DNA of 54,250 bases, taken from a virus (Duplodnaviria > Caudoviricetes). The notes under the pieces were generated by a model. The model was given only the letters and a program-made list of their open reading frames with translations, searched no databases and was not told where the DNA came from. The DNA lies in IMG/VR virus record IMGVR_UViG_3300033485_000018, positions 1 to 54,250 of that record, one strand, 5' to 3'. Numbering within the stretch: position 1 is the stretch's first letter; every line of letters starts with the position of its first letter. The translations under genes were made by a program, and so were the position numbers. This document shows, piece by piece, positions 1 to 54,250 of this stretch.

Positions 1-127
1 AGCACGAGGCCGCAGGCCTTCGAGGAGCAGAGACCATGACCGTTCAAAGCATCAAGAAGCACCGCGAGCCTTGGATGCTCGGGAGCAATTTCCTCGAGCA
101 GATCGAGAAGGCGGAGAACCTGAGCGA
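1..127. repeat. Terminal direct repeat, copy 1 (identical to 54124-54250); circular assembly overlap
   Basis: Positions 1-127 (agcacgaggcc...cctgagcga) recur exactly at 54124-54250; 127 is a common assembler k-mer size. Confidence 0.95.
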
Positions 128-3483: not shown

Positions 3484-3487
3484 AACC

Positions 3488-15768: not shown

Positions 15769-16097
15769 AGCTCGCGGCCGCTAGCATCGTGGCGCTCGTG
15801 ACTGTGGCGCAGATCGGCTCGGCGACAACCGATAGCCCGCCCCTGGATCTCTTGACCCAGCTGCTGTCGGCGCTCGGGCCGATGGGCTTCGTGATGTGGC
15901 TTGTGGTGAGAACCACGAACCACACCATCCCGCGCCTGGCCAAGTCGTTCGAGGAAGCGCTCGATCGGGCTCGTGTGGATTTCCGCTCGATCTTGACCGA
16001 CCAGCGCACCGACTTCCTGGCCCTGCTCGACCGCGAGCGCACGATCCAAGTCCAGCTCCTAGATCACCTTGCTGGGCAACGTGATAAGGATCCTTGA
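15765..16097 (+). CDS. Putative holin-like membrane protein
   Basis: GTG start overlapping upstream stop; hydrophobic segments followed by a charged coiled coil. Confidence 0.5.
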   Translation: MKLAAASIVALVTVAQIGSATTDSPPLDLLTQLLSALGPMGFVMWLVVRTTNHTIPRLAKSFEEALDRARVDFRSILTDQRTDFLALLDRERTIQVQLLDHLAGQRDKDP

Positions 16098-19000
16098 TGA
16101 GCATCCAAGCCACGATCAATCGCCTGATCTCGATCCTGCAAACCTACGCGAACGTGCCGCCACGCGAAGCCAAAGAGCTGCGCGCGGGGTTTGACGAGCT
16201 CGCGCCCTTCGCAACCGAGGCCGAGCTTCTCGCGTCGGCCCTCGATGATGGCGCTATCGCCTACGCGGAAGACACCGACAAGTTCTATTTCCGCCGCGCG
16301 GGCGCGTGGTCCAGCGTCGCCAACCCCGATGGCACAGGCAGCGGTGTCGAAGTCTTCGCACTCGAGGCGGCGCTACTCGCGGCCGCGCGCTCCGATGCTG
16401 CGATCGCCTACGCCAGCGATACCGACAAGTTCTATTTCCGCCGCGACGGCGCGTGGTCGAACGTCGCCAACCCGTGCGTCGAAGTCTATGCCACCGAGGC
16501 GGGGCTACTTGTGGCGACGCCGACCGATGCCGCGATCGCCTACGCCAGCGACACCGACAAGTTCTATTTCCGCCGCGACGGCGCATGGTCCGCCACACCC
16601 AACCCCGATCTCGTAGGGATCGAAGTCTTCGCGCTCGAAGCCACACTCCTCGCCGCCGTGCGCAACGACGGCGCGGTGGCCTACGCGCAAGACACCGACA
16701 AGTTCTATTTCCGCCGCAACGGAGCTTGGTCGGCGACGCCCAACCCTGACGCCGATTTCGCCGACCCGTACACTCCGGTTGACGGGACGCTCAACATCAT
16801 CGGCAAGCTCAGCGTCCGCGCTCCCGCGGGCCCCGCGGGTTCCGAGCAATTCGGAGATGCCGCCAGTGCCTCGGCCGCCAATGCCACCGCTCTTGGTTCC
16901 TCCGCGGCCGCCACAACCGCGGGCGCCACCGCGATCGGCGCGGCCGCGGAAGCCTCTGGGGCCTCGGGCGTCACGGCCGCGGGTTTCAACTCGGCCGCGC
17001 TCGGTACCAATGCCACCGCGCTTGGCGACGGCGCGACCGCGGGGGATCCTACCGCGGGCAGCGCCTGCACCGCACTAGGTCAAGGGGCCTTGGCGGGCGC
17101 AGCCAACGTGGCGAATTGCTCGGCCGTAGGGGCTGGCGCGGCCGCCAACACCGCGGCGAACGCCACCGCTACGGGCGCGGGCGCGGTCGCGAGCGGGGCC
17201 GGTGCGACCGCTTCAGGCCAGAGCGCCGATGCGACCGCGGATTCGACAAGCGCCTATGGCAAGGATGCGCAGGCGACCGCGGCCTCGGCAACCGCTACGG
17301 GAGCAGGCGCACAAGCGACCGCGGCTTCGACCACCGCCGAGGGCGCGGCGGCTTTGGCCGCGGGTGCGGACTCGACAGCCATCGGCGCGGACGCGCAGGC
17401 GGGTTCGGGCGCGATCGTAGCCTGCACGGCCGTGGGTGAGAGCTCGCGCGCGGTCGCGGCATCGAACGCAACCGCGCTTGGGGCCAGCGCGGTTGCGAGT
17501 GGCGCAGGGGCGACCGCTTCGGGCCAGAGCGCCGATGCGACCGCAGACTCGACAAGCGCCTATGGCAAAGACGCGCAAGCGACCGCGGCCTCGGCAACCG
17601 CTACGGGAGCGGGTGCGCAAGCAACCGCGGCCTCGACAACCGCCGAGGGCGCGGCGGCCTTGGCCGCGGGTGCCGATTCGACCGCCCTTGGCGCGGACGC
17701 GCAAGCGGGTTCGGGGGCGGTCGTTTCTTGCACGGCCGTGGGCGAAAGCTCGCGCGCTATCGCGGCCTCGAATGCAACCGCGCTTGGGGCTAGCGCGGTT
17801 GCGAGTGGCGCAGGTGCAACCGCTTCGGGCCAGAGCGCCGATGCGACCGCAGACTCGACAAGCGCCTATGGCAAAGACGCGCAAGCGACCGCGGCCTCGG
17901 CGACCGCCACGGGAGCGGGTGCGCAAGCGACCGCGACCTCGACAACCGCCGAGGGCGCGGCGGCCTTGGCCGCGGGTGCAGACTCGACCGCCCTTGGAGC
18001 GGACGCGCAAGCAGGCTCGGGCGCGGTCGTTTCTTGCACGGCCGTGGGCGAAAGCTCGCGCGCGATCGCGGCCTCGAATGCAACCGCGCTTGGGGCTAGC
18101 GCGGTTGCGGGTGGAAGCAACGCAACCGCCTTCGGGCAAGACGCGCAAGCGGGGGCCGTCGGGGTTGCCGAATGCACGGCCGTGGGCAAGGGCTCCCGCG
18201 CCATCGCGGCCGCGCAGGCCTGCGCTTTCGGCCAGGCCACGGTAGCGAGCGGGACGCGCTCGAGCGCTTTCGGCCAGAGCGCGGATGCGACCAACACCGA
18301 CACACTCGCTGCGGGCCAGGCGGCCCAAGCGACCGGGCTGAACTCTTGCGCTCTCGGAGCGGGGGCCTCGGCTTCGGCTTCGCAGACTTTCGCTGCGGGA
18401 ATGACGGCCACGGCCTCGGGGTCAAATTCTTGCGCTACGGGCCAAAGCTCAGCAGCGACAGCCGCGGGCGCGACCGCATATGGCCGTGACGCGACGGCCT
18501 CGGGCACCTCGTCAACAGCTATCGGGAACTCGGCGGATGCGACCGGCACCGGCGGGACCGCCGTGGGCGAGGCGGCGCAAGCCGGCGCGGCCATAAACTG
18601 CACCGCTATCGGAAACGGCGCGATAGCAAGTGCCGCTGGAGGAACCGCGCTTGGAGTGACGGCAACCGCGAACGGGATCGAAAGCACTTGCCTCGGTGGT
18701 GCCGCGAGCTGCGGTGCCGCGACGCGCGCCGTCTCCGTGGGTTACAGCACGATCGCTGGGGAGGATGGCACGGGGGTCGGTCATAACGCGGACGTGCTCG
18801 CGCCCAAAGGAACCACTCTCGGCTCTGATGCGCAGGTCACGGCCGGCCACGACGGCGCGATCGCAATCGGAAAAAGCGCGCGCTCCCAGGGCGCAGGCGA
18901 AGGTGCGTGGGGTGCTTCCGGGCAGCAATGCTCGCTGCGCGTATTCGGTGGCCTGAGCCTTCCCTTCGTGACGAAGAGCGTGGATTACACGCCGACCAAA

Positions 19001-19237
19001 GATGACCACCTGATCTTGGTCGATGCCTCGGGTGCCAACCGCACCATCAACCTCCCCGCGGTCGCGTCGCACGTCGGCCGCATCTTCGTAGTCAAAAAGA
19101 TCGACTCCTCGGCCAATACCGTCACGCTCGACGGCAACGCGAGCGAAACGATCGATGGCGCCACGACGCAAGTGATCGCCCTTCAGTGGTACACGATCCG
19201 CGTGCAGAGCGATGGCTCGGCGTGGTATGTGGTTTGA
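16097..19237 (+). CDS. Long fiber/adhesin with YadA-like head repeats
   Basis: Many 14-aa A(T/S)A(L/I)G repeats typical of trimeric beta-roll heads; four N-terminal DTDKFYFRR.GAW repeats; C-terminal TINLP..GRIFVVKK..TIDG..W domain. Confidence 0.8.
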   Translation: MSIQATINRLISILQTYANVPPREAKELRAGFDELAPFATEAELLASALDDGAIAYAEDTDKFYFRRAGAWSSVANPDGTGSGVEVFALEAALLAAARSDAAIAYASDTDKFYFRRDGAWSNVANPCVEVYATEAGLLVATPTDAAIAYASDTDKFYFRRDGAWSATPNPDLVGIEVFALEATLLAAVRNDGAVAYAQDTDKFYFRRNGAWSATPNPDADFADPYTPVDGTLNIIGKLSVRAPAGPAGSEQFGDAASASAANATALGSSAAATTAGATAIGAAAEASGASGVTAAGFNSAALGTNATALGDGATAGDPTAGSACTALGQGALAGAANVANCSAVGAGAAANTAANATATGAGAVASGAGATASGQSADATADSTSAYGKDAQATAASATATGAGAQATAASTTAEGAAALAAGADSTAIGADAQAGSGAIVACTAVGESSRAVAASNATALGASAVASGAGATASGQSADATADSTSAYGKDAQATAASATATGAGAQATAASTTAEGAAALAAGADSTALGADAQAGSGAVVSCTAVGESSRAIAASNATALGASAVASGAGATASGQSADATADSTSAYGKDAQATAASATATGAGAQATATSTTAEGAAALAAGADSTALGADAQAGSGAVVSCTAVGESSRAIAASNATALGASAVAGGSNATAFGQDAQAGAVGVAECTAVGKGSRAIAAAQACAFGQATVASGTRSSAFGQSADATNTDTLAAGQAAQATGLNSCALGAGASASASQTFAAGMTATASGSNSCATGQSSAATAAGATAYGRDATASGTSSTAIGNSADATGTGGTAVGEAAQAGAAINCTAIGNGAIASAAGGTALGVTATANGIESTCLGGAASCGAATRAVSVGYSTIAGEDGTGVGHNADVLAPKGTTLGSDAQVTAGHDGAIAIGKSARSQGAGEGAWGASGQQCSLRVFGGLSLPFVTKSVDYTPTKDDHLILVDASGANRTINLPAVASHVGRIFVVKKIDSSANTVTLDGNASETIDGATTQVIALQWYTIRVQSDGSAWYVV
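17160..18110 (+). repeat. Three tandem 306-bp (102-aa) repeats within the adhesin gene
   Basis: gagcgccgatgcgaccgc recurs at 17221, 17527 and 17833; boundaries approximate. Confidence 0.85.
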
Positions 19238-28922: not shown

Positions 28923-29371
28923 TTTCTGGCCAGCGCCCAGAGGCCTAGGCCGATGGCATCGATCACATTATGTTTGATCGTTGCCGGTAATTTCAATCGC
29001 TCTAGCACCGAGCGTTCTTCGTGGTCAAGGCGCCCCAAGATCCGCTCGCCCATGATCGCTTTCGGCACGTTGCCTTTCCATGTATGCGGGAGAACCACGC
29101 TCGTCTCGCCCGCGGTGCCCTCGAAGGTCTGCATGATGCGCCCGACCGTCACGGCAACCGCAATCAAGTCGTTGGGGTCGCCGCGCCAGGCCCGTTGCTG
29201 GTAGACCTGCGGGAGCTCGATCACGACACGCGCCGCGATACTCGCGAAGCGTTGCCCCAGGGCGCGCCCCAGCGGTTCCTGTTCGATGCCGCAGCGCATG
29301 AGTAGCCCGCCGTCGAACGTTGCCCACGCCGCGGTATGAGCCCCAGGGTCGAACGCAATCAAGCGATCCAT
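28919..29371 (-). CDS. RuvC-like Holliday junction resolvase
   Basis: LIAFDPG, VVIELPQ, PHTWKG and HNVIDAIGLG motifs. Confidence 0.8.
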   Translation of the reverse strand: MDRLIAFDPGAHTAAWATFDGGLLMRCGIEQEPLGRALGQRFASIAARVVIELPQVYQQRAWRGDPNDLIAVAVTVGRIMQTFEGTAGETSVVLPHTWKGNVPKAIMGERILGRLDHEERSVLERLKLPATIKHNVIDAIGLGLWALARK

Positions 29372-30006
29372 GATGGCAACTCTCTACGCGCCCGCAAAAT
29401 AGCTTCGAGCGTGTTGTCGATGACGGTTGGCAAAGCATCCGCGGCGCTCACGATGCACCACGCGGGATCGTCGGCGTGCTGCGCCCAGAGCTTGCGATAC
29501 AGGCGAACGGTCTGCGCGACCAGCGACTCGTCGCCTTCGTAGCGCTCCCGCGCTTGCTTGCGTTCATCGCAACGCGCAATCGCTAGCGGCGGCGCCACGT
29601 CAAGTAGGATCGAAATATCGGGTTGCACAAGCGGCGCGTGAACCGCCTGCAACCAAGCGGCTTCGAGCCCATCAAGCTGCCCGTATACCCAGGCGCTGTG
29701 CCAGTAGCGGCACAGGATCAAGTCGCGATCGAGGCTGCCCGCGAAGAGCTCGAGCTCGTGCTGCGCTTCGAGCTTGTTCAAGCTTTGCAGCGCTTGGAAC
29801 GCGAGCGCGTTGTGCAGGCGCAGGTGCTTCGCCGAATCTTCTGAGCCATCTACCCACCAAAGTCGATTGAGGTACTGTTTGATCAGTTTGCCGGTCGGCG
29901 TATCATACATCGGGAAGCTCATCGGCCGCATCGGTCGCCGCGCCACCACACCCTTCGCGACGCTACTCTTGCCGCACCCATCCGCACCTTCGAGAACGAT
30001 GATCAT
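29359..30006 (-). CDS. tmk: Thymidylate (dTMP) kinase
   Basis: MIIVLEGADGCGKS P-loop, SFP, LILCRYWHS..YG and PDISILLDV motifs. Confidence 0.85.
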   Translation of the reverse strand: MIIVLEGADGCGKSSVAKGVVARRPMRPMSFPMYDTPTGKLIKQYLNRLWWVDGSEDSAKHLRLHNALAFQALQSLNKLEAQHELELFAGSLDRDLILCRYWHSAWVYGQLDGLEAAWLQAVHAPLVQPDISILLDVAPPLAIARCDERKQARERYEGDESLVAQTVRLYRKLWAQHADDPAWCIVSAADALPTVIDNTLEAILRARRELPSWIA

Positions 30007-30422
30007 GACTTTCGCCGTCCAATCTTTGCGAGGAACTCCCAAATAGTCGCGTGTGTTTCGGTCACCAGGTCGTGGAGGTAGAACGCTGTGATCCGACCGT
30101 CCTGCTCGAGCGGCCCGATCAGGTGGATCTCGGCGTGAGCTTCCCCGCGCAACCTGCGCCAGATCGCGTGCCCGAGCGCGACCCCCAGCTCGCAATGGGT
30201 TCCGCGGCCACCGGGAAGTAGCGCCACGAAGAGATCGGCCGCGACTACACCTTGCGCTTCCGCGTTTGCAACCTGGCGGATCCTTGTCGGGCCACCGCTC
30301 TGAACCGCGCCGTGCTCGGTCCAATCGTAGGTTTGCGTATGCCCGAGCGCTTTGAGGCAGCGCGCGAGCTCACGCTGCGCCTCGAAGTTCTCCAGCCGCG
30401 TCGCGATGTAGAAATTACTCAT
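30003..30422 (-). CDS. Nucleoside 2-deoxyribosyltransferase-like protein
   Basis: FYIA, ADLFVALLPGGRGTHCELGVA motifs. Confidence 0.75.
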   Translation of the reverse strand: MSNFYIATRLENFEAQRELARCLKALGHTQTYDWTEHGAVQSGGPTRIRQVANAEAQGVVAADLFVALLPGGRGTHCELGVALGHAIWRRLRGEAHAEIHLIGPLEQDGRITAFYLHDLVTETHATIWEFLAKIGRRKS

Positions 30423-38602: not shown

Positions 38603-39553
38603 CTACCGCACGAAGGGTTGCACGAGCGCGCCGACATCGGCGAACTCATCGACGACTTTGTGCGGGGCACACCCGAGAAAGAAGAACGCTTGCCCTTGCC
38701 GGTTGCCGTTCGTGGCTTTGTTGCCCTGCAAGAACGCGATCCGCCCGTTCGTGAAGCACGCGGGAAAATCCCGTAGGAAGGGCTGGAACCACGCGGTGTC
38801 GGTCGCGTTGTTGACGAGCATAATCGCAGCCGGGACATGGCGGCTGTGAAAGAATTGGAGCAGGCGCTCAGTGAATTGCGTCACGAGCGGCTGGCTAAAG
38901 GGTGGGTTGAGCCAGACGCGCCCCGCCCACGGCAGCGCGAGGCCGTTGTCTTCTTTCGAATACCACCGATCGGCGCGCACGCGCGCTTGCGCGGCCGCGT
39001 TCGATGCTGGATCCAGATCGATCATGCCCAACACGCGCCGCGCCTTCGCCAGGTACTCGACCGGCGTGCTCCATTCGTCACCGTCGTGCTCGGCGTTCGC
39101 GGTAATCGCGAGCACCGCTTGGGCCGTCAGATGTCCCTTGTCGCGCGCCTTGGCAACGCGCCCATCGAATTCCTCCTCGGGGATCGCGGCGAATTTCTGC
39201 GCACGCCGCGAGTCGTCTTGCGTGACTCCCAGCTCTTTGAGCGTAACCCCCGGGGCCTTCGCGGGAGTTTTTGCGCGCCGCTCCCCGTGCTTCACGGGGG
39301 CGCCTCCCTTGTGTAGCTCGGTGTTCGCGAGCAGCTCTCCCAAGCGGCGCTCGGCGCGCAGTGCGATCTCGAAGGCATCGTCGCGTGATTCCGTCGAAGC
39401 GCGCTTTACGCGCAGGTAGACCGCGACGGCCTTTGCCTTGTCGCGGATATCCTTCGCCTCGTCGGTGGTCTTGCACGCGGCCAAGATCATCCGCGCCTTC
39501 TCGACGCTGAGCTGAGCGACGTCGCGCTGGGTTAAGGTTACCAGTTCCGTCAC
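38603..39553 (-). CDS. Phage DNA N6-adenine methyltransferase (Dam-like)
   Basis: EWSTP, DLDPAS, GLALPW and WLNPPF motifs; N-terminal helical/HTH region. Confidence 0.88.
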   Translation of the reverse strand: MTELVTLTQRDVAQLSVEKARMILAACKTTDEAKDIRDKAKAVAVYLRVKRASTESRDDAFEIALRAERRLGELLANTELHKGGAPVKHGERRAKTPAKAPGVTLKELGVTQDDSRRAQKFAAIPEEEFDGRVAKARDKGHLTAQAVLAITANAEHDGDEWSTPVEYLAKARRVLGMIDLDPASNAAAQARVRADRWYSKEDNGLALPWAGRVWLNPPFSQPLVTQFTERLLQFFHSRHVPAAIMLVNNATDTAWFQPFLRDFPACFTNGRIAFLQGNKATNGNRQGQAFFFLGCAPHKVVDEFADVGALVQPFVR

Positions 39554-43645: not shown

Positions 43646-43976
43646 CCCGGATCACCTAGTTTGATCCGGGGTGATCCGGGTGATCCGGGCTGAAGCGAAA
43701 CCGCGGCCGCGCGGCCGGCGGTTACGATCGGTGAAGGCGCGAAGGGGGCCGGGCAACGGACGGGGGAATCGGAGCGGGCAACGGACGGGGGGTTCAAAGG
43801 CCGCTCGCTCGAGCGGAATGGCAACAAAGGGCGGAGGTCGGGGGCATTTCGGCCATGCGCTCGCTCGAGCGGGCCGATGGGGAGAAGGCCTCTCGCTCGA
43901 GCGGGCCGATGGGTTGAAGGCCTCTCGCTCGACGGCGCCGTTGACGGCGCGGTTGACACTCTGCTCGAGCAGAGGC
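43646..43976. repeat. Repeat cluster in the divergent noncoding region (candidate origin or pac site)
   Basis: tgatccggg x3 plus one inverted copy; gggcaacggacggggg x2; ctcgctcga core x4, three at 32-bp spacing; palindrome ctctgctcgagcagag. Confidence 0.75.
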
Positions 43977-43987
43977 TAGATCGGGGC

Positions 43988-44557
43988 ATGGCAAAAGCAG
44001 CCGCCGTCAATGCTCGCGTAGTGAAGCTGACCGACCTGACACCGGACCCGAACAACCTGCGCCTACACCCAGAGCGATCGAAGGAAGCCATCGGGGCATC
44101 GGTGCGGGAGCTCGGCGCGGCGCGGTCGATCGTCGTCGACGGGCAAGGCGTCGTGCGCGCGGGCAACGGGACGCTCGAAGCGGCCGCCGCGGCCGGCATC
44201 ACCGAGGCCGTGGTGATCGAGACCGACGGCAAGCAGCTCGTGGTGGTCAAGCGCCCGGACTGGACGCCCGAGCAGGCGCTGGCCTACGCCATCGCTGATA
44301 ACCGGGCGGGTGAGCTCTCGCATTTCGATCCATTGTTGCTGCAAGCAGCGATGGCCGAACTAGCGCAAGATGCAGTGACCCATGGCACGACTGGTTTGCT
44401 CGACGCGCTTGGCTATACCGAAAAAGAGTCGGCAGCTTTGTTGGGGGAAAGCATGCCAGAGAAGACGGGCGATGTGCAGCGAACCCGCGAGGTATCGTTC
44501 GTTGCGATCGAGAAGGATCTGATGACAGAATGCCCGCGCTGTAAATTCAAATTCTGA
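43988..44557 (+). CDS. ParB/Srx-like N-terminal domain protein
   Basis: LTPDPNNLRLH, IVVD..VRAGNGTLEAA, AIADNR; C-terminal CPRC. Confidence 0.8.
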   Translation: MAKAAAVNARVVKLTDLTPDPNNLRLHPERSKEAIGASVRELGAARSIVVDGQGVVRAGNGTLEAAAAAGITEAVVIETDGKQLVVVKRPDWTPEQALAYAIADNRAGELSHFDPLLLQAAMAELAQDAVTHGTTGLLDALGYTEKESAALLGESMPEKTGDVQRTREVSFVAIEKDLMTECPRCKFKF

Positions 44558-44560
44558 ACA

Positions 44561-45637
44561 ATGGTAGCAATAGCTCCAATGCGTGGACCATGGCGGCTAG
44601 AGCAGCTTGATGCTGCACCACGTTTACCGTTGCGATGCGTCTCAACCTTTAGCGGGGCCGGTGGATCGAGCATGGGATATCGTTTGGCCGGTATCGATGT
44701 CGTCGCGGCAGTGGAGATTGATGCAAGAATGGCGGATTGCTACGAAGCAAACCTAGGCGAGGGAAAGGTGGTGCGGTTGCCTGTGGGGGAGGTTGCGCAA
44801 TGGGACGCTGATCGACTTGCGCAACGCTTCGGGGTCGTCGACATCTTGGATGGATCGCCGCCGTGTTCGGTATTTTCCTTGTCTGGCGATCGCCAAAAGA
44901 AGTGGGGCGCAGAATTCCATTTCGCAGAAGGACAAGCCAAGCAACGCCTTGATCTTTTGTTCTTTGACTTCATCGCGCTAGCAAAAGCGCTGCGGCCGCG
45001 GGTTGTTGTTGGTGAGAATGTCGTGGGGCTACTCAACGGGAAGGCTCGGGGTTTTGTGGTTGAAATTGTCGCAGCTTTCTCGGATGCAGGGTATGACACT
45101 CAAGCGTTCGTTTTAGACGCCGCTGCAATGGGGGTTCCGCAAAGGCGCCGGCGCGTTTTTTTCATCGCACGACGACGCGATCTGGATATGGCTTCGATTG
45201 CTTTGGATTTCGACGAACCGCCGATCGCGTCGCAAGATGCCTTGAGCGGTTGTGTTTGCTTGCCTGATGAAAAACTGCATTGGTTGACGCCGAGATTCCA
45301 AGACCTGTGGAGCCGAACGCGCTTGGGTGGAAATTTCGGGGATGGTTATATTGGCTCGCGAAAAGGTAGCTACATAGGGCGTCGCTCGTGTTTCAATATT
45401 TTCCGGCTCGACTCGGCGAAGCCGGCAAACACGGTGACAACGACACACATTGCCCATTGGAGCGAGCCGCGGTTTCTGCACTCGCGGGAGATTTGCCGAT
45501 TGCAGACTTTCCCTGATGACTATGCCTTCGGTGCTTTGCGTGCGCAATACGGTGCAGGGATGAGTGTGCCACCACAAATGTCTCGACGGCTTGGGTTGGC
45601 TTTGGCGGATTGGCTAGACGCAGCGCCGCAGACGTAG
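44561..45637 (+). CDS. DNA (cytosine-5) methyltransferase
   Basis: FSGAGG, GSPPC, ENV, PQRRRR and RLQTFPDD motifs. Confidence 0.92.
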   Translation: MVAIAPMRGPWRLEQLDAAPRLPLRCVSTFSGAGGSSMGYRLAGIDVVAAVEIDARMADCYEANLGEGKVVRLPVGEVAQWDADRLAQRFGVVDILDGSPPCSVFSLSGDRQKKWGAEFHFAEGQAKQRLDLLFFDFIALAKALRPRVVVGENVVGLLNGKARGFVVEIVAAFSDAGYDTQAFVLDAAAMGVPQRRRRVFFIARRRDLDMASIALDFDEPPIASQDALSGCVCLPDEKLHWLTPRFQDLWSRTRLGGNFGDGYIGSRKGSYIGRRSCFNIFRLDSAKPANTVTTTHIAHWSEPRFLHSREICRLQTFPDDYAFGALRAQYGAGMSVPPQMSRRLGLALADWLDAAPQT

Positions 45638-45650
45638 CAGGATAGAAAGC

Positions 45651-46247
45651 GTGGTCGTGCGAAGCAGCAACATCCCTCCGTCCGCCCTCGAGCCCGAGCG
45701 CCCCTGGGAGCGGCAACGCGCCGAGCCCGATTGCGCGTGGGAAGGCTTTGTCGCCTACCGCGAGCTTGGGCCGGGGCATCGCTCGTTATCCGCAGCCGCG
45801 GCGAAGATGGGCAAGAAATCGTCGACGCTCGAGCGCTGGTCGCGCAATTGGGATTGGGTGGCGCGTTGCCACGCCTACGATGTTTGGGTCGACCGCGAGA
45901 CTAAGCTCGCCGAGATCACGGCCATCAAAGACATGCGCCGTCGGCATATCGAATTCGCGATGAGCTTCCAAGGCGCTGCGGCGCTAGCCTTGAACAAGAT
46001 CATCGCGGCGGAGAAGGCGCGCACCGAAGATGGGAAGCCCGGGCCGCTCACGCTCAAACCGACCGAGGTCAAAGAGCTCGCCGAGCTGGGGCTCAGGCTC
46101 GAGCGGTTGAACCGTGGTGAGCCCAGCGAGATCGAGAAGCTCACAATCGACGCCCCGCCGGCTTCGGTGCTGGACTACTCCGCGCTGAGCATGGAAGAGC
46201 TGCGCACCTTGCGTGCGCTGACGCTCAAAGCACGCGGCGGGTTGTAG
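45651..46247 (+). CDS. Terminase small subunit
   Basis: PWERQ..F..YRELG..RSL HTH, WSRNWDWVAR; directly upstream of TerL. Confidence 0.7.
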   Translation: MVVRSSNIPPSALEPERPWERQRAEPDCAWEGFVAYRELGPGHRSLSAAAAKMGKKSSTLERWSRNWDWVARCHAYDVWVDRETKLAEITAIKDMRRRHIEFAMSFQGAAALALNKIIAAEKARTEDGKPGPLTLKPTEVKELAELGLRLERLNRGEPSEIEKLTIDAPPASVLDYSALSMEELRTLRALTLKARGGL

Positions 46248-46248
46248 G

Positions 46249-47826
46249 GTGGGTCGGCGGCCAAAAGAGCGGCCACCGAAGCAGCCGCACCACAAGCAAC
46301 GCTTAGACCTCGTCGACGCGCTCGAGCTCGAGCGCGAGATCATCAAGCGCAGTTTTCGTGATTTCATCCCGCAAGCGTTCGAGATCATGGAGGGCGGTGA
46401 TGCGCACGCCTCTCTCGTGCGGCGCGGTCTGCGCCCGCCCAAGTTCGTATCGGGGTGGCATATCGACGCCATCGCCGATCACTTGCAGGCCGTCGCACAG
46501 GGCGAGATGCCGCGGTTGCTGATCAACATCCCGCCCGGTACGATGAAGTCGGTGCTGGCGTGCGTGCTCTGGCCAGCTTGGCTCTGGGGCTGCGACCCCA
46601 CCCAGCGCTTCCTGTTCTCGAGTTACTCGGAAGAATTCACCAAGCGCGACGCGCGGCGCACCAAGGCGCTGCTTTCGAGCGCCTGGTATCAAGCGCTCTT
46701 CCCCGGCACGCGGTTGGCTGCGACACCCGATACGGCAATGGAGCACCACACCACCGCAGGGGGGGAGCGCCACGGGGCGTCGACCAACAGCGGTGTCACA
46801 GGGAAGCACGTTCACGGCATCGTCGAAGACGATCCGCTCAAGATGCAAGACGCTTCGAGCAAGTGTGCTCGCGACGAGGCGTGGGATTACCGCACGCAGG
46901 CGCTGGGCTTCCGGTTGCTGCCCGAGAATAGCTGGCGCGTGGTCATCATGCAGCGCCTACACGAAGACGATCCAAGCGGTCGCATCCTGTCGCGCGGCGG
47001 GCGCGATGATGAAGAGGCTGAGCTTCGGGATTCCTACGTGCATCTCTGCTTGCCTATGGAATACGAACCGGAGCGGCGTTGCGTGACCAAGCTCTTCGCT
47101 GACCCGCGCACCGAAGCTGGCGAGCTGCTCTGGCCGCAACGGATGAACGCGAAGTTCGTGCAAGAGAAAAAGAGCCCGCAAGGGTTGGGGGAATACGGCT
47201 ACGCAGGCCAGGGGCAGCAACGCCCCGCACCGGCCGAGGGTGGTATCATCAAGCGCGCTTGGCTTCGCTACTGGCTCGAGTACCCGGAGGATCTCGAGTT
47301 CATCATTCAGTCGTGGGACTTCCCCGTCAAGAAGACCGGCAAGAGCTTCGCGGTGGGCTTCGTGTTCGGGTTCAAGGCGCCCAACACCTACTTGCTCGAT
47401 CGCTTCCGCGCGCACACCGGCTTCGCCGACATGCTCGCGGCCGCGCGGCGCATGAACGAGAACTGGCCGGACTGCCGCGAGAAGCTGATTGAAGACAAGG
47501 CGAGCGGCTCCGATGTGATCGAGACGGTGCGCGAAGAGATCCCTGGCATCGTGCCCGTCACGCCTGTGGGGTCGAAGGAAGAGCGGCTCGTCGCGGTTTC
47601 CTACATCATCGAGGCTGGCAATCTGTTCGTGCCCCATCCGAGCATCGCGCCGTGGGTCCATGAGGTGATCGACGAATGGTGTACCTTCCCGAATGCGACC
47701 AACGACGATCAGGTGGACACTCTTTCCCAAGCGCTCAAAAGGTTGTACGGTCACAAGCGACCTAAGAAACCTTCGCCGCTTCGCCTCGGGGGCGCGGGGG
47801 AACGCACGAGCCCATGGGAGATGTGA
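46249..47826 (+). CDS. terL: Terminase large subunit
   Basis: INIPPGTMKS Walker A, DDP, IMQRLHEDD, QSWD, IEDKASG and DDQVD motifs. Confidence 0.92.
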   Translation: MGRRPKERPPKQPHHKQRLDLVDALELEREIIKRSFRDFIPQAFEIMEGGDAHASLVRRGLRPPKFVSGWHIDAIADHLQAVAQGEMPRLLINIPPGTMKSVLACVLWPAWLWGCDPTQRFLFSSYSEEFTKRDARRTKALLSSAWYQALFPGTRLAATPDTAMEHHTTAGGERHGASTNSGVTGKHVHGIVEDDPLKMQDASSKCARDEAWDYRTQALGFRLLPENSWRVVIMQRLHEDDPSGRILSRGGRDDEEAELRDSYVHLCLPMEYEPERRCVTKLFADPRTEAGELLWPQRMNAKFVQEKKSPQGLGEYGYAGQGQQRPAPAEGGIIKRAWLRYWLEYPEDLEFIIQSWDFPVKKTGKSFAVGFVFGFKAPNTYLLDRFRAHTGFADMLAAARRMNENWPDCREKLIEDKASGSDVIETVREEIPGIVPVTPVGSKEERLVAVSYIIEAGNLFVPHPSIAPWVHEVIDEWCTFPNATNDDQVDTLSQALKRLYGHKRPKKPSPLRLGGAGERTSPWEM

Positions 47827-49193
47827 TGACGGAGCACGCACGCCTTGATCTGAACATCATCGGGACCACAGGCCTCAAGCAATACGGGGGCACGATCTAC
47901 GAAGAGTTCTTGACGCGGCTGCAAGGCAAGCGCGGGGTCGCCACGTTCCGCGAGATGCGGGACAACTCTTCGACGATCGGCGCCATCGCCTTCGTCATCG
48001 ACACGCTCTTGAGTCAAGCCGAGTGGCGCGTCGAGCCGGCGGGTGACACACCCGAAGCGCGTGAGCAGGCCGCGTTCGTTGACGGCTGCTTCGAGGATAT
48101 GAGCCACACCTTCGAGGAGCTGTTGCTCGAGATCCTCTCGATGTTGACCTATGGGTGGGCCTATTTCGAGTTGGTCTACAAGATGCGACAAGGTCCTGAC
48201 GCAACGGACCCGTCGCGGCGCAGCAAGTTCGACGATGGTAAGATCGGCTGGCGGAAGATGCCGCTGCGGTCCCAAGATACGCTCGATCGCTGGGAGCTCG
48301 ATCCCCAAGACAATGGCGTGCGCGGCCTGTGGCAGTTCGACCCCACGGCCGTCAAGGGGAGCCTGTTCTTCATCCCGATCGAGAAGGCGCTGCTCTTTCG
48401 GGCCGCGGGGGCAAAGAGCAACCCAGAAGGTCGCTCGATCTACCGCAACGCTGTGGTCGATTACCACTACCTCAAGCGTATTTCACAGATTGAGGCCGTG
48501 GGCATCGAGCGCGACATGACCGGCTTGCTGACCATGGAGGTCCCGACCGAGATCTTGATGGCCGAGGCGGGCACGACGGAACGGCAGATCCGTACTGAGC
48601 TCGAGCGCATGTTGGCGGGGCTCAAGCGCGATGAGCGCGAATTCGCCATGGTGCCCGCTGAGCTCGACGCCGACAACAAGCCGACCGGTTACAAGCTGAA
48701 GCTCTTGGCAACCGGTGGGCGCCGGCAGCTCGACACCAACGAGACGGTTATGCGCTACATCCGCACGATCCTGACCAGCGTGCTGGCCGAGTTCTTGGTG
48801 CTCGGCGCCAATAGCGTGGGGTCGTTCGCGCTCGCTTCGTCGAAAACCAAGCTCTTCTCGGCTGCGCTCGGTGCGATCATGGGATCGATCGCGTCGATCT
48901 TCAATCGCTTCGCTATCCCGCGCCTGATGCACTTGAACGGGGTGAAGCCCGCGCTCTACCCGCAGCTCGTCCACGGCGATATCGAGAGCCCGCCGCTCGA
49001 AGAGGTCGCGGCCTACATCACAGCGCTGGCGACCGCCGGTATGCTGACGCCGAACAAGCCGCTCGAGCGGAAGCTGCTCGAGATCGGCAAGCTCCCCGTG
49101 CCCGCGGTGGACGATGACGATACCGCGCTCCCCGGGGAAACGGATGATGAGCAAGATGAGCCCGAAGAGGATGACGCGGGCGCGGTGGCCTGA
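47826..49193 (+). CDS. Portal protein (DUF935-like)
   Basis: NPEGRSIYR, GIERD..G, GSFALA motifs; follows TerL. Confidence 0.85.
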   Translation: MTEHARLDLNIIGTTGLKQYGGTIYEEFLTRLQGKRGVATFREMRDNSSTIGAIAFVIDTLLSQAEWRVEPAGDTPEAREQAAFVDGCFEDMSHTFEELLLEILSMLTYGWAYFELVYKMRQGPDATDPSRRSKFDDGKIGWRKMPLRSQDTLDRWELDPQDNGVRGLWQFDPTAVKGSLFFIPIEKALLFRAAGAKSNPEGRSIYRNAVVDYHYLKRISQIEAVGIERDMTGLLTMEVPTEILMAEAGTTERQIRTELERMLAGLKRDEREFAMVPAELDADNKPTGYKLKLLATGGRRQLDTNETVMRYIRTILTSVLAEFLVLGANSVGSFALASSKTKLFSAALGAIMGSIASIFNRFAIPRLMHLNGVKPALYPQLVHGDIESPPLEEVAAYITALATAGMLTPNKPLERKLLEIGKLPVPAVDDDDTALPGETDDEQDEPEEDDAGAVA

Positions 49194-50137
49194 TGCCCTT
49201 CGTGGCGATTCGCAAGGCGCGGCCAGAGTGGCAAGACACGCGCCCCGCAGATCCCGCGCTGCGGGACGCCTACGCGATCGCAGGGCGCAACGTCGGCGCG
49301 TTCTCAACCGCCTTTGCTGCTACGGTGCGCAGCCTGGTGACGCCTGCGGTCTTGCGCGCGGTGCGGCAGAAGATCGCAGCCGGGGGGCGCGCCGAAGAGA
49401 TCGTCGACCTACTCCCATGGTTCAACGAAGCGCAGCCCGAGAGCGTAACCGCCTGGGAGAAGCTCGGCGAGAAGCTCACGGCAGCCTATGCCAAAGTGAT
49501 CCGTGAGTCCGGTGCAAGCGCGGCGCAGGAGCTGACGGCGAAGGCCAAGCGCACCGTGCCTGTCGTGCCGGTCAACCCCGCCGCAGTGCGGTGGGCTAAA
49601 GAGCGCGGCGCGAAGCTCGTGCGCGAGACCAGCACCGAATCGAAGCGCATCGTGCGGAACGTCGTGGCGCGAGAGATGGCGCGCGGTGTGCGGGCCGAGC
49701 GCATGGTCGCCGTTATCACGCGCACCGTCGGGTTGCTCGAGCGCGAAGAGGCCGCCGTCGATCGGCGGCATCGGCTCTTGCTCGATCAGGGAGTCAGCGA
49801 CGATCGCGCAGACAAGCTGTCGGATAAATACGCCGATCAGCTCTTGCGCCAACGCGGGCGGCGCATCGCACGCACCGAAACGATCGCGGCGCAAAACCAA
49901 GGGTTGCTGTTCGCGTGGCTCGATGCGCGTGATGCGGGGCAATTGCCGGCGGTTGAGCGCGAGTGGTCGGCTTCCCCGCCGAGCCCCCGCACCTGCGCGA
50001 TCTGTCTCGAGCTCGACGGGACCACTACGGGGCTCGATGAGCCTTTCGAGTCGGCGATCCTAGGTGAGGCTGTGATGATGCCGCCCGCGCATCCGTCGTG
50101 TCGATGCACGGTCAAGCTGCGGCGAAAACAGGAGTAG
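49193..50137 (+). CDS. Head morphogenesis protein (Mu gpF / SPP1 gp7-like)
   Basis: RIARTE, TCAIC..LDG and PPAHPSCRC motifs. Confidence 0.85.
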   Translation: MPFVAIRKARPEWQDTRPADPALRDAYAIAGRNVGAFSTAFAATVRSLVTPAVLRAVRQKIAAGGRAEEIVDLLPWFNEAQPESVTAWEKLGEKLTAAYAKVIRESGASAAQELTAKAKRTVPVVPVNPAAVRWAKERGAKLVRETSTESKRIVRNVVAREMARGVRAERMVAVITRTVGLLEREEAAVDRRHRLLLDQGVSDDRADKLSDKYADQLLRQRGRRIARTETIAAQNQGLLFAWLDARDAGQLPAVEREWSASPPSPRTCAICLELDGTTTGLDEPFESAILGEAVMMPPAHPSCRCTVKLRRKQE

Positions 50138-50141
50138 GGTG

Positions 50142-52829
50142 ATGGCTGAGCGAAAACTGAGCCGGGAATACCTCGAGGAAGCTCTTAAGCTCGCGCGGGA
50201 GCATCTCCCTACGTGGGCGTGGGCAATGCTGCACGCGCAAGCGCGCCCGCGCTCTGGTGGGCGCGCTCGCGCCCGCGCGGACGGCCCAAGTGAGCTCGAG
50301 AAGCTGGCGTTGCCCATGCTCATGGCGGGAGATGCTCCCGCGCGCGCGTTGTCCGATGACGCGCTGCGCGCCGCTTGGTTGCGCGTAAGCGCGTGGCTCA
50401 CCAGCGCGCAGCGGCGCAAAGAGCCCGTCGAAGATTTCGTCAATGCGGGGGTGTGGCTCGCGGAGGAAATGGATCGGCGCGGCTTGGATGTGGCCGAGAA
50501 CAACCTGCTCCACGCGGTCGCCGAGCTCGGTGAGGTCAGCAAGAAGCTGACTGAGAAACAGCAAGCGGCTTTCGATCGTGAGACCGAGCAGATCCGGGAA
50601 AACAAGCGCAAGCCGGTCGCGCAGGCGGCGCACCCGTTCAAAGCCGCGGAGTGGACGCACCCAAACGGGCACCCGCGCTGTCTGGTCTGCGGCGACGAAG
50701 AGCCCGTGGGCGGGATGTGCGAAGGTGTGGCGCCTGTGCAGAAGCGCGGCGGCTTCGAGGAGCTCGCCGCGTGGGTCGATGGACGCTGGCCGGTGGGCAT
50801 CGTGCCGACCACGCTCTACCCGGAGCCACACCAGATTTGCGCGGAGAGTCCCGCGGCCAAGAGCTTCGCGCAGGCTCTCGCGGGGTTGCCGGAAGGGGCA
50901 AATCTCCACGGGGGATGGCGCCCGGATGGGCGGCGCGGCACTTTCGTTGCGCGCGATTTAGTCACCGACGTGGTCGAGGTGCCTTTCTCTGAGCGGCGCG
51001 CAGCGCTTGAGACTTTTTTTGCCAAGCAGGTGACCGGAACGGAAGGGATAGAGCTCGCGCCGCTTCGGTGGGCGCACAACGCGGAAGAGGCCGAGCAGGC
51101 CGCGCGGCTGTTCTTCGTCGACGCGGCGCAGGGTGTGGACGTGTTCCGCGCGCACGCTTTCGCCGACAAAGCCGACAGCTTCCACATTGCGAAGATGACG
51201 AAGACGGTAGCGCCCTGCGGGCCCGTCGGCGCGCCTGTGGCCTTCGTGACGGCGGCCCCCTCGCGGGTGGAGGGTGCGCTTGGTAGGTTGATCGTTGGTG
51301 AGACCTTCAGCACCTTCGCGAAGCAGTACCTGGCGCCCCTTGGTGTGGCCCGCGAGCAGGTCGCGCTGCTGAGCGCGGTGCCCGAGGTGCTGGTCGATGC
51401 GGTCGGCAAATCGCGCGAGCCGGCCCCCGAGGATCTCGTGCTCTGGCGCGGTTGGTTGCTGTCGGAGTTGGATCGCTTGGCGCCGCGCACCGTCGTTGCA
51501 CTAGGCCGCACCGCGGCCGAGGCGCTGGGCAAGCGCGCGAACTTCGTGCTGCCCCACCCAAGCGCGGTGGCGCGTTATGGGAACTCTCGAGAGGTGCCGC
51601 GCAAGATGCGCAGGATCGCCAAGAGCCTGCGCGCGCTGCCGCTCGCTAAGGTGCTCGACGAAGGCGACGAGACGCAGGCCGAGCGCGCCGATGCGGAGTG
51701 GCGCCGAACGTGGGTGGAGCAGCTCCCCCCGAGCGGCACCGGGCGCTTCGTCTACCAGCACCATTGGCGCGGCTTGGATGATCCCGAGCGCGAGCTATCG
51801 GACGCGCAGCTCCTCGAGACTGATCACAGCCTGCACGGGGATCTGCGCTTCGAAGGCGCCGACGATCGCTTGTTCGGGTGGTCCATCCTGCTCGGCGAGA
51901 CTTCCGCTAACCGCAGCTCGCGGGGCGATCGCTTGGTCGCGGGTGACGCGGAGAACGTGCGCCTGGTCTCGAAGCTCCCGCAGCCCGCCGCGTGGCTCGA
52001 TGTTGGGCGCGGCGAGCCCTTCGTGGTCGCGCCTGGCGGTGCCGGTGCGACAGCCAACACGAGCGCAAAGCTCTTCGCCATCGACGCGGGTACCTACTCG
52101 ATCGGCGTGGTGCGTGAGCATGCCGTTGAGATTTTCCTTGACGGGAAGCACCTGCGCGGGAGATACATGATCTCGTCAGTGCCGACTGAGACTGGCACTC
52201 GGGTTTGGCTGATTCAAAAGCCCTCCGAGCAAAAGCCGATCGCAGCGACGCGCGAGGTGGCCGATGTAGTTCGCCAAGCGAAACGGGATGGGGCCCAATA
52301 CTTAGTATGGGGCCAACCCGGGGCCAGACCGCGGCGCATCAATGTCCAGACCGAGCAGGTCGAGAAGACCGCGGTCGTGCCGATCCTAAAGGCGGACGAA
52401 GAAAAGCAGATCGTCTATGGGGTCGTTTTGGATCCCTACCAGATCGACGCGCACAACGACTGGATCTCACCCGCAGAGATCGAGAACACGGCCCACGGGT
52501 GGCTACAACGCTCACCGGTGGTGAGCTTGAACCATCAAGGGCCGTCGCAATCGAAAGCGGTTGAGAGCTGGATCGAACAGTACCCGCCGGGCGAGTACAG
52601 CAAGGCGATGGCCGGCAAGCCGCATCGCGCGTATAGGCGCAAGTTCGGGCGCGATACGATCCATTCGGGCGCGTGGCTCCTGGGTACAAGGCTGAGCGAT
52701 GCCGAGTGGCAAGCATACAAGCGCGGCGAGCTGCAAGCGTACAGCATCGAAGGGTTCGGGATGCGCACACCGATGAAACCGGGCGACATGCCGAAAGTGA
52801 CCTTCGTGGATTTGGTCGAGAAGGGCTGA
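50142..52829 (+). CDS. Multidomain prohead protease (XkdF-like) with ligase-, UDG- and LigD-PE-like domains
   Basis: C-terminal KQIVYGVVLDP..DAHND..H..YSIEG; internal UDG-like VVALGRTA..PHPS; GRFVYQHH..HGDLRFE. Confidence 0.8.
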   Translation: MAERKLSREYLEEALKLAREHLPTWAWAMLHAQARPRSGGRARARADGPSELEKLALPMLMAGDAPARALSDDALRAAWLRVSAWLTSAQRRKEPVEDFVNAGVWLAEEMDRRGLDVAENNLLHAVAELGEVSKKLTEKQQAAFDRETEQIRENKRKPVAQAAHPFKAAEWTHPNGHPRCLVCGDEEPVGGMCEGVAPVQKRGGFEELAAWVDGRWPVGIVPTTLYPEPHQICAESPAAKSFAQALAGLPEGANLHGGWRPDGRRGTFVARDLVTDVVEVPFSERRAALETFFAKQVTGTEGIELAPLRWAHNAEEAEQAARLFFVDAAQGVDVFRAHAFADKADSFHIAKMTKTVAPCGPVGAPVAFVTAAPSRVEGALGRLIVGETFSTFAKQYLAPLGVAREQVALLSAVPEVLVDAVGKSREPAPEDLVLWRGWLLSELDRLAPRTVVALGRTAAEALGKRANFVLPHPSAVARYGNSREVPRKMRRIAKSLRALPLAKVLDEGDETQAERADAEWRRTWVEQLPPSGTGRFVYQHHWRGLDDPERELSDAQLLETDHSLHGDLRFEGADDRLFGWSILLGETSANRSSRGDRLVAGDAENVRLVSKLPQPAAWLDVGRGEPFVVAPGGAGATANTSAKLFAIDAGTYSIGVVREHAVEIFLDGKHLRGRYMISSVPTETGTRVWLIQKPSEQKPIAATREVADVVRQAKRDGAQYLVWGQPGARPRRINVQTEQVEKTAVVPILKADEEKQIVYGVVLDPYQIDAHNDWISPAEIENTAHGWLQRSPVVSLNHQGPSQSKAVESWIEQYPPGEYSKAMAGKPHRAYRRKFGRDTIHSGAWLLGTRLSDAEWQAYKRGELQAYSIEGFGMRTPMKPGDMPKVTFVDLVEKG

Positions 52830-52832
52830 GCG

Positions 52833-53684
52833 ATGGCGCAAGCAAGAAACCTGGGCAAGCTCGAGACGCTCGGCGTGAGTTTGGTCAAGAACGGCGCGAA
52901 CCGTAAACGGTTTGCGATCACCAAGGCGGAGACCATGGACGCAGAAGCGATCGAAGTGCTGAAGGCAATTCTGGAAGAGACCGAGCTCACCGATGAGGCC
53001 GCGCTCGACGCCGTGCTCAAGGCGAAGCTCGGCGAGAAGCAGGCGAACGCCGTCAAGGGCGCCATGCGGCTGCTCAATGCGTTCAAAGACGACGCCGCCG
53101 TTAAGGCGTTGCTGGACCACATGACCGAGCTCGTGGGCACCCCCAGCTCGGCGGACAAGAACAAGCCCGAGAAGGGCGAGGAGACCCCCATGGACAAGAA
53201 CAAGGTTACCAAGATCTGCGACCTGAGCGCCTACGCGGCGTCGGTGCAGAAGGCGCTCGAGAACGTGCCCGAGGAGCAACGCGCCATGTTCGGTGGCGTG
53301 CTCCAAGCAATTTGGAAGGAAGCCGACGATCGCGCCAAGCAAGCCGACGAGAAGGTGGCGAAGGCTGAAGAGCGCGCTACCAATACCGAAGAGATCCTCA
53401 AGGCCGAGCGCGACAATCGCTTGACCAAAGAGTTCATCAGCAAGGCCGAGCGCGACTTCGCTTCGATCCCCGGCAAGGCCGAGGAGCTCGGCCCCGTTCT
53501 CAAGGCTCTGAACGATCTCGATCCGAAGCTCTGCGAACAGATCCAAGGCGTGCTCAAGGGCGCCAACGACCTGCTCAAAGAGAGCAAGGCGTTCTCCGAG
53601 CTGGGCCGCAGCGGCTCCGCGGGGCTGAACGGTGGCACGGCATGGGAAGCCATGCAGAAGGCAGCGCAGGCCGCAGCGCAATAG
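52833..53684 (+). CDS. Scaffolding protein
   Basis: VSLVKNGANRKRF start, then charged helical sequence; between protease and capsid. Confidence 0.7.
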   Translation: MAQARNLGKLETLGVSLVKNGANRKRFAITKAETMDAEAIEVLKAILEETELTDEAALDAVLKAKLGEKQANAVKGAMRLLNAFKDDAAVKALLDHMTELVGTPSSADKNKPEKGEETPMDKNKVTKICDLSAYAASVQKALENVPEEQRAMFGGVLQAIWKEADDRAKQADEKVAKAEERATNTEEILKAERDNRLTKEFISKAERDFASIPGKAEELGPVLKALNDLDPKLCEQIQGVLKGANDLLKESKAFSELGRSGSAGLNGGTAWEAMQKAAQAAAQ

Positions 53685-53755: not shown

Positions 53756-54124
53756 ATGGCGTTTGAGATCCCTTGCTTCAAGGTTTCCGAGGTGGCCGCT
53801 GCCGATCTGTCGGCCGCGCAATACAAGCTCGTGAAGGAAACATCCACGGGCGTCAACGTCTGTGGCGCTGGCGAGGCCGCTACCTGCGGCGTACTCCAGA
53901 ACAAGCCGACGGCCGGGCAGACCGCCGAGCTGATGGTCAGCGGCGTGACCAAGGTGCTCGCCGGGGCCGCCACCGCAAAGGGCTTGAACGTCACGCCCGA
54001 TGCGACCGCGCGAGTCGTTGCCGCGGGCACGGGCGATTACATCGCCGGCACGCTCATGGAAGCCGCGGCTGCCGCCGGGGATATCGTGACCCTCCTGATC
54101 AACCCACAAGGCCGCTCGGCCTAA
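53756..54124 (+). CDS. Capsid decoration/cement protein (DUF2190-like)
   Basis: AAADLSAAQYKLVK, GVLQNKP..G and EAAAAAGDIV motifs. Confidence 0.75.
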   Translation: MAFEIPCFKVSEVAAADLSAAQYKLVKETSTGVNVCGAGEAATCGVLQNKPTAGQTAELMVSGVTKVLAGAATAKGLNVTPDATARVVAAGTGDYIAGTLMEAAAAAGDIVTLLINPQGRSA

Positions 54125-54250
54125 GCACGAGGCCGCAGGCCTTCGAGGAGCAGAGACCATGACCGTTCAAAGCATCAAGAAGCACCGCGAGCCTTGGATG
54201 CTCGGGAGCAATTTCCTCGAGCAGATCGAGAAGGCGGAGAACCTGAGCGA
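54124..54250. repeat. Terminal direct repeat, copy 2
   Basis: Identical to positions 1-127. Confidence 0.95.

Follow-up and report, generated by a model that had tools for sequence, protein, structure and literature searches.

The polyprotein gene described here is located in the head module of an uncultured tailed phage, represented by the IMG/VR record IMGVR_UViG_3300033485_000018. The window analysed corresponds to the whole record (54,250 bp), which displays direct terminal repeats and is rated complete. The open reading frame (ORF) extends on the plus strand from position 50139 (GTG) or 50142 (ATG) to position 52829 and encodes 896 or 895 residues, respectively. From N- to C-terminus, its product consists of a helical domain, a zinc-ribbon-like element, a dead ligase remnant, a non-canonical uracil-DNA glycosylase (UDG)-like domain, a LigD-type phosphoesterase (PE), a linker and an XkdF protease. 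With slightly better than even confidence, it is interpreted as a polyvalent protein in which several nucleic-acid-enzyme domains are strung together ahead of an XkdF prohead protease; this protein would be loaded into the head, cut and injected. As in other polyvalent proteins, several unrelated enzyme or binding domains were found in a single phage polypeptide together with a C-terminal assemblin-like peptidase.

The sequence AGGAG is present 7 nt ahead of the ATG at position 50142, and the database copy of the polyprotein counts 895 residues. Since both features agree, the start that had been chosen in the initial annotation of this DNA (50142, giving 895 residues) is probably the right one.

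Relatives of the polyprotein are encoded in 134 out of 151 candidate stretches of IMG/VR; the family comprises at least 134 stretches, and 80 loci were kept. The family set used below consists of 133 non-identical proteins, fragments included. Our own hidden Markov models (HMMs) of the individual domains detected XkdF in 129, UDG in 112 and PE in 109 of these proteins.

Domains of the polyprotein

The XkdF-type (Peptidase_S78_2) prohead protease domain was located at residues 747-890 (52377-52808, plus strand). The corresponding Pfam family PF14550 matches residues 748-875 with an E-value of 8.5e-18 and 65 bits (gathering cut-off of 24 bits), covering profile positions 4-123 of 126. The initial annotation had recognised the last 150 residues or so as XkdF-like, in agreement with this result. 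The position of the gene in the head module, between the genes for portal and MuF on one side and those for scaffold and major capsid protein (MCP) on the other, is also the one expected for a Peptidase_S78_2 member. Four residues, among which the catalytic ones may be sought, are strongly conserved across the 129 family domains: D770 is present in all of them, H786 in 126, H799 in 128 and S869 in 128 (with one gap). The domain is followed by a conserved C-terminal tail with the consensus MPxVTFVDL (MPKVTFVDLVE in the query), and it is preceded by a conserved linker of 43 residues (703-745; 52245-52373, plus strand) which was defined from the alignment and for which the family HMM ('LNK') matches most relatives.

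The LigD 3'-phosphoesterase-fold domain at residues 512-702 (51672-52244, plus strand) was identified by profiles, by structure modelling and by Foldseek. It is the best supported of the structural calls made in the initial annotation, although it was formerly the least certain of them. Out of 48 family PE segments, 39 matched the Pfam family LigD_N at E<=1 (best value 8.4e-6), while any other family was matched by at most one segment. A profile built from the same 48 segments gave seven matches in the PDB, five of which are LigD PE structures (5dmp with E 5.9e-4, 3p43 with E 8.2e-4, 3p4h, 3n9b and 2lj6). In these alignments the stretch HGDLRLE (H566-x-D568-x-R570-x-E) is placed on the H-Y-D-x-R-L-E motif of 5dmp, 3p43, 3p4h and 3n9b. 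The AlphaFold2 model of residues 512-702 was obtained with a mean predicted local distance difference test score (pLDDT) of 95.6 and a predicted template modelling score (pTM) of 0.91. When it was searched against the PDB with Foldseek, seven matches were obtained at E<=0.001, and all seven are bacterial or archaeal LigD PE domains (probability of 1.00, TM-score by target of 0.55-0.80); the next match had an E-value of 0.016 and a probability of 0.14. The structural match proposed as a check in the initial annotation was thus found for the PE.

The residues of the PE site were counted in the 109 family PE domains. Among the 106 without gaps at the positions in question, H542, H566 and R570 are present throughout, D568 in 105 and Q540 in 100. 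H542 was taken as the first PE histidine by its position only. Q540, H542, H566, D568 and R570 presumably correspond to Gln40, His42, His48, Asp50 and Arg52 of Pseudomonas aeruginosa LigD. The PE retains its predicted catalytic residues, and it is the only passenger of the polyprotein for which catalytic activity is likely in the query phage.

The UDG-superfamily domain (residues 357-498; 51207-51632, plus strand) was recognised by Pfam and by sequence matches to solved structures, with family 4 and UdgX as the nearest groups. PF03167 matches residues 361-483 with an E-value of 1.4e-12 and 48.3 bits, or 52.7 bits when the domain is taken alone (gathering cut-off of 24.3 bits). The query sequence itself matches the family-4 structure 1ui0 (E 1.8e-4), and the family profile matches the UDG structures 4zbx (E 1.4e-12), 1vk2, 1ui0 and 6ail with E-values ranging from 1.4e-12 to 2e-7. 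Motif B (PHPS) is kept at residues 472-475; across the 112 family domains its histidine is present in 111, and the residues of PHP are each retained in 111-112. In motif A, TAAPS (residues 371-375) takes the place of the GEAPG or GEGPG found in the aligned solved UDGs, so the family-4 pattern GE[AG]PG with its catalytic glutamate is replaced. Family-4 UDGs carry a 4Fe-4S cluster. The query domain holds a single cysteine in place of the four of the family-4 set; among the family domains, 56 out of 112 are devoid of any cysteine and only one has four, which argues against an Fe-S site. The initial annotation had already described a family-4 UDG-like domain with an altered motif A, an intact PHPS and no Fe-S cysteines, and the Pfam and PDB matches are consistent with that description.

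The family-specific cut-offs of NCBIfam were missed widely by this domain, both for family 4 (TIGR00758, 30.4 against 125.3 bits; NF040953, 30.9 against 250 bits) and for UdgX (TIGR03914, 45.4 against 189.95 bits). The UdgX loop with the cross-linking histidine was not recovered either, as the family profile is gapped where the loop of 6ajq would align. Furthermore, the query domain is devoid of a phenylalanine and an asparagine which are kept by many relatives (I385 and S412 in the query), and the alignment revealed internal deletions in the UDG domain of some relatives. Taken as a whole, the sequence suggests a module with the UDG fold whose catalytic competence is uncertain and for which DNA or lesion binding is more likely than uracil excision.

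A remnant of the nucleotidyltransferase domain of an ATP-dependent DNA ligase was located at residues 276-333 (50964-51137, plus strand) by profile search and BLASTP. The initial annotation had rightly ranked its degenerate ligase-like stretch as the weakest call. When the 388 six-frame ORFs of the window were searched with a profile built from the ligase domains of 22 relatives, the remnant was detected with an E-value of 2e-6, and the second match reached an E-value of 6.9 only. The remnant aligns with residues 811-869 of the relative P0004 by BLASTP (E 7e-6), and within the family set 15 relatives yielded a total of 16 BLASTP alignments at E<=0.01. It is homologous to the central part of the PF01068 domains carried by relatives, with about 58 alignable residues, and Pfam gave no PF01068 match in the query. 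Judged by its sequence, the stretch appears to be a relic. Residues 200-352 were modelled at pLDDT values of 30-55, which says little about this region because no alignment depth is available there.

Two elements precede the remnant. The N-terminal all-helical domain (residues 5-135; 50151-50543, plus strand) was defined from the family alignment, and the family HMM finds it in most relatives. Most of residues 11-140 were modelled with a pLDDT of at least about 90, and residues 31-50 with lower values of 73-85. Nothing was detected in Pfam below an E-value of 0.27 for residues 1-200, and Foldseek searches against the PDB and BFVD gave no match at E<=0.001 for this domain. The best VIA-align Z-score (6.8) lies within the noise for helical models, and the domain was not assigned to a fold. 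The Cys/His-rich zinc-ribbon-like element WTHPNGHPRCLVCGDEEPVGGMC was found by motif search at residues 172-194 (50652-50720, plus strand). The motif W.H..G.P.C..CG, in its extended form W.H..G.P.C..CG....G.C, is present in three out of 133 family proteins, namely the query and its two closest relatives, L001 and L028. It follows the N-terminal domain in the query and precedes it in both relatives, which suggests that it is a small mobile module. The element was modelled as short strands with a pLDDT of about 72-77 and may bind a metal. All features mentioned in the initial annotation were found at the coordinates given there.

A core conserved in uncultured phages

A protein search delivered 73 relatives which share about 60% of the query, corresponding to the UDG-PE-XkdF core. 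Variants of this core were also observed, some lacking the UDG domain and others the PE domain. The genomic slot is conserved as well: a scaffold homologue is located directly downstream at 62 and an MCP gene within 3.5 kb at 54 of the 72 loci with at least 900 nt of downstream sequence available, and a MuF or portal gene was found within 2.3 kb at 50 of the 60 loci with at least 1200 nt available upstream.

Ahead of the core, the relatives display various modules, among which are PF01068 ligases, S-adenosylmethionine (SAM)-dependent methyltransferases, 2H/LigT, NTP_transf_2 and metallo-beta-lactamase (MBL) domains. Intact ligase domains are matched by Pfam with E-values down to 1.3e-25 over profile positions 22-203 of 204, and the motif I lysine is visible in P0004, P0019 and P0033. 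The best NCBIfam matches of these ligases are models of DNA ligases and of LigD or non-homologous end joining (NHEJ) ligases, all of them below cut-off. Slot and core are therefore conserved in many uncultured phages, and the N-terminal modules are exchanged.

One additional protein was observed in L055 (3525-5966). It contains an MBL-fold hydrolase, a PE-like domain of the present family, a second and canonical LigD_N domain (E 2.3e-15) and a C-terminal protease of the HK97 type, not XkdF. The design of cargo placed on a protease thus recurs on a second protease family.

Head module and scaffold-like protein

The order of the head genes, assigned with PHROGs and Pfam, is TerS (45651-46247), TerL (46249-47826), portal (47814-49193, plus strand), MuF, polyprotein, scaffold-like protein, cement and MCP. 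The MuF-like head morphogenesis gene (49193-50137, plus strand; Pfam Phage_Mu_F with E 1.8e-13, and PHROGs) lies directly upstream of the polyprotein ORF, and the scaffold-like gene (52833-53684, plus strand; PHROGs) directly downstream. It is followed by a cement/decoration-like gene (53756-54124, plus strand; Pfam Phage_cement_2 and phrog_673). The gene of the lambda-E-type MCP is located at positions 36-1181 (plus strand; phrog_1005 with E 6.7e-85, and Pfam Phage_cap_E). The head module thus spans the ends of the record, with the cement gene at the end (53756-54250) and MCP at the start (1-1181), which is in keeping with the terminal repeats. The presence of a sheath gene (3428-4969) points to a contractile tail.

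Besides the XkdF domain, the Pfam scan of the 52 ORFs of the window revealed no member of a protease family, and it revealed no separate ligase gene. No convincing internal start was found that would give a protease-only product: no in-frame start preceded by a Shine-Dalgarno sequence exists ahead of the protease domain, and the sole candidate is a weak GGAGA ahead of M677, inside the PE domain.

The scaffold-like protein displays an N-terminal motif at residues 8-33 (52854-52931), LETLGVSLVKNGANRKRFAITK, which is kept in relatives. The hairpin consensus L..L...EVSLV..GAN.KKRF.I.K was derived from 43 sequences and lies within residues 1-33 (52833-52931). In three relatives the same hairpin was found inside the polyprotein, namely in L039 (3054-7001), L037 (1887-6065) and L047 (5871-9953), where the HMM of the scaffold N-terminus gave E-values of 3.5e-8, 8.5e-5 and 4.4e-4, respectively. 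In these proteins the hairpin follows the S-x-G-G region of the protease and then runs into a scaffold-like tail; in L047 it is included in a Pfam Peptidase_S78 match covering profile positions 95-158 of 165. The presence of the hairpin in the polyprotein of three relatives indicates that a protease-scaffold unit seems to be split over two genes in most members, the query included. Two further ideas found no support. As to whether the hairpin taken alone is a recognisable piece of a protease family, only one of the 43 N-termini matches Peptidase_S78 (E 0.075), which is uninformative. The idea that the polyprotein tail MPKVTFVDLVE is a second copy of the hairpin was dropped, as the scaffold N-terminal HMM matches the tail in none of the 133 family proteins.

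A few other genes of the window were noticed. A Dam-like N6-adenine methyltransferase is encoded at 38603-39553 (minus strand), a C5-cytosine methyltransferase at 44561-45637 (plus strand) and a ParB-like protein at 43877-44557 (plus strand), the latter two genes sitting just upstream of the small terminase gene. Past the baseplate and fibre genes, an ORF of 1047 residues (16094-19237, plus strand) probably encodes a large fibre or host-recognition protein; its only matches are weak ones, to Fibritin_C and to one PHROG. Finally, an ORF of 321 residues (29359-30324, minus strand) has a thymidylate kinase domain that takes up the C-terminal two thirds of the product, and the N-terminal 110 residues have no assignment.

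Proposed function and known systems

As prohead proteases work inside the procapsid, the whole chain would be built into the head. The protease would then cut it at the linkers between the domains, and the freed domains would remain with the DNA and follow it into the host. There, the PE would strip 3'-blocking groups (3'-phosphate, 3'-ribonucleotide) from ends or nicks of the incoming genome and the UDG-like domain would bind DNA or lesions, the ligase piece being a relic. Where relatives have an intact ligase, its pairing with the PE has the appearance of a LigD-derived heal-and-seal kit. Loading into the head is favoured because of the protease slot, the finding of a single protease domain, the conservation of the slot and the lack of a convincing internal start. 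The function of the cargo is the weakest link of this explanation. Most likely, it would serve to heal ends or nicks of the incoming genome that are blocked at their 3' side, or else to counter a defence by nucleases or glycosylases. By analogy, PE and ligase of the relatives may be compared to LigD without its polymerase, and UDG, PE and ligase together to pieces of base-excision repair. A decoy role is plausible for the UDG-like and ligase parts only.

Several points weigh against this interpretation. The members of the family are known from their sequences alone, and loading, cleavage and activity are predicted. In the query phage, the sequences point to inactivity of two out of three enzyme-like passengers. 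For the UDG domain, the GE.PG form of motif A is present in none of the 112 family domains, relatives having mostly GASPG or GASPS; in the ligase remnant, motif I (the KxDG lysine) is not alignable, which suggests that the adenylated lysine is gone. The Pfam family LigD_N (PF13298) reaches only 15.7 bits on the query PE (cut-off of 31.1 bits; E 0.017-0.035), and the PE also stays under the NCBIfam cut-off (TIGR02777). By spacing, His84 and Tyr88 of P. aeruginosa LigD presumably correspond to Q615 and W619 of the query, so that activity or specificity of the PE may differ. In the protease domain, S843 varies (kept in 109 of 129 proteins) while S869 is nearly invariant, and the catalytic residues of XkdF are only putative. 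Moreover, the MuF ORF also matches PHROGs labelled 'head maturation protease' (phrog_16493, E 2.5e-22). Finally, among 50,697 GenBank phage records the XkdF domain alone gave matches (26 records, <=16% of the query), and the protein thus appears to be absent from cultured phages.

The alternative that survives best, considered unlikely, is that the passengers are non-catalytic head ballast or a DNA-binding core protein, i.e. repair relics maintained for bulk, DNA condensation or scaffold-like assembly and not delivered as enzymes. A ligase of which only about 58 residues can still be aligned and motif I cannot, a UDG domain which has lost motif A family-wide (and in the query also the Phe and Asn), and the internal deletions of this domain in some relatives all fit such a role. 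The metal- and phosphate-site residues of the PE, invariant in 105-106 of the 106 ungapped domains, are however hard to explain without catalysis, and full ligase domains with the motif I lysine are retained in relatives (P0004, P0019 and P0033).

Somewhat less probable still is an action of the enzymes late in the cytoplasm, for example in cleaning or sealing replicated DNA before or during packaging, in which case the fusion would couple their expression to that of the head genes and they would not be carried in virions. Nicks and branches in the DNA are poorly tolerated by packaging motors, the gene belongs to a late head operon, and the Pfam scan detected no separate ligase gene in the genome. 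With a C-terminal protease and no internal start, however, the protease could not enter the prohead without its passengers unless these were cleaved off first, and the same layout was found on the unrelated HK97-type protease anchor of L055. In addition, the authors of the survey on polyvalent proteins read such fusions as delivered by the virion (PMC5512222).

The least probable of the alternatives, a kit for RNA (tRNA) repair against anticodon nucleases in which 3' ends would be healed by the PE and sealed by the ligase, with the methyltransferase protecting the junction, would be in line with the 2H/LigT domains of relatives matching the RNA 2',3'-cyclic phosphodiesterase model TIGR02258 (L001 with E 1.7e-7 and L027 with E 5.8e-9, below cut-off) and with their SAM methyltransferase, nucleotidyltransferase and MBL/RNase Z-like domains, but it is opposed by ligases that match ATP-dependent DNA ligase and LigD/NHEJ models and not RNA ligases (in the 9 out of 12 relatives whose proteins gave any ligase match), by methyltransferase matches that are generic with none to a Hen1 model, by the lack of a visible 5'-kinase, and by the query protein itself, which carries a DNA-enzyme fold (UDG) and no RNA-type modules. 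LigD PE acts on 3'-ribonucleotides, which is also in favour of RNA repair.

Delivery of the chain with the genome is thus preferred, and a more far-reaching version of it may be put forward only tentatively. Widespread uncultured tailed phages would carry in the capsid a LigD-derived first-aid kit composed of an active PE, a lesion-binding UDG-like domain and, in relatives, a ligase, tethered to a protease docked on an N-terminal strand donated by the scaffold. Once released by the protease and injected, the kit would mend ends and nicks made by host nucleases or glycosylases, a counter-defence based on repair and not on inhibitors. If true, phages would deliver DNA-end-repair chemistry (LigD-type cleaning, and sealing in relatives) together with their genome, and mending the damage would be a principle of counter-defence unlike that of known injected inhibitors and methylases. 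The prohead protease would then represent a natural and programmable handle for loading cargo. The invariant PE site offers a clean biochemical entry point.

The general design is already known. Polyvalent proteins as described by Iyer, Burroughs, Anand, de Souza and Aravind combine disparate enzyme domains, a gene in the head module and a prohead-type peptidase at the extreme C-terminus (PMC5512222), all of which are shared by the present polyprotein. According to Iyer et al. (2017), assemblin-like peptidases are always C-terminal in these proteins and probably process them at virion assembly, and delivery of the proteins together with the DNA, after processing at assembly, is predicted (PMC5512222). 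In the main text of that survey, 'UDG' and 'LigD' are nowhere mentioned and 'ligase' refers to RNA ligases only. That text therefore describes neither the core of UDG-like domain and LigD-PE nor the DNA-ligase modules or the conserved helical domain at the N-terminus, and the UDG/PE cargo is new relative to it.

The literature found on XkdF, Peptidase_S78_2 or PF14550 consists of genome announcements and a survey of jumbo phages, with no study of XkdF-UDG or XkdF-PE fusions among it. XkdF is given as a head-processing peptidase in the jumbo-phage survey (PMC7824862), and the other mentions retrieved are annotation remarks (PMC5964084, PMC12038007). In the phage SPN3US, ejection proteins are reported to be cut by the prohead protease (PMC7411985). 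In cultured phages, enzymes placed N-terminal to XkdF are known from annotated methyltransferase fusions such as the 'DNA methyltransferase/prohead protease protein' of Rhizobium phage RHph_TM16 and those of Lactococcus ul36-like phages (phrog_1530, phrog_14859). Their likeness to the query is confined to XkdF (26-33% identity over <=16% of the query), and they carry just one passenger, UDG and PE domains being absent.

With bacterial LigD PE (3n9b/3n9d/2lj6) and archaeal stand-alone PEs (3p43, 3p4h, 5dmp), the PE of the polyprotein shares the fold, the H-x-D-x-R-x-E motif and a histidine-containing first strand (QHH) ahead of it, as well as a LigD/NHEJ-like ligase partner in relatives. It differs from them by an identity of 15-20% only and by the insertion of about 20 residues between the first histidine strand and HGDLR. 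Neither a polymerase domain nor Ku is present, and the PE of the query is fused to a capsid protease. The UDG-like domain resembles family-4 UDG and UdgX (4zbx, 1vk2, 1ui0, 6ail) by its Pfam match above cut-off and by motif B (H-P-S/A), and departs from both by the replaced motif A, the missing Fe-S cysteine set and UdgX cross-link loop, and the NCBIfam scores below cut-off.

The anti-restriction proteins DarB of phage P1 and the internal proteins and Alt of phage T4 are the experimentally tested analogues of capsid-loaded, injected proteins. They are large enzymes described as packed while the head is assembled, and are believed to accompany the DNA into the cell and to protect it there (PMC9024508). 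Capsid loading and injection are proposed likewise for the polyprotein, which is known from genes alone. The DarB and T4 proteins are encoded by separate genes and addressed to the capsid by short N-terminal targeting sequences, whereas in the polyprotein the protease domain itself would be the anchor. The passengers of the polyprotein also differ in nature, being domains of the repair type and not of the methylase or helicase type.

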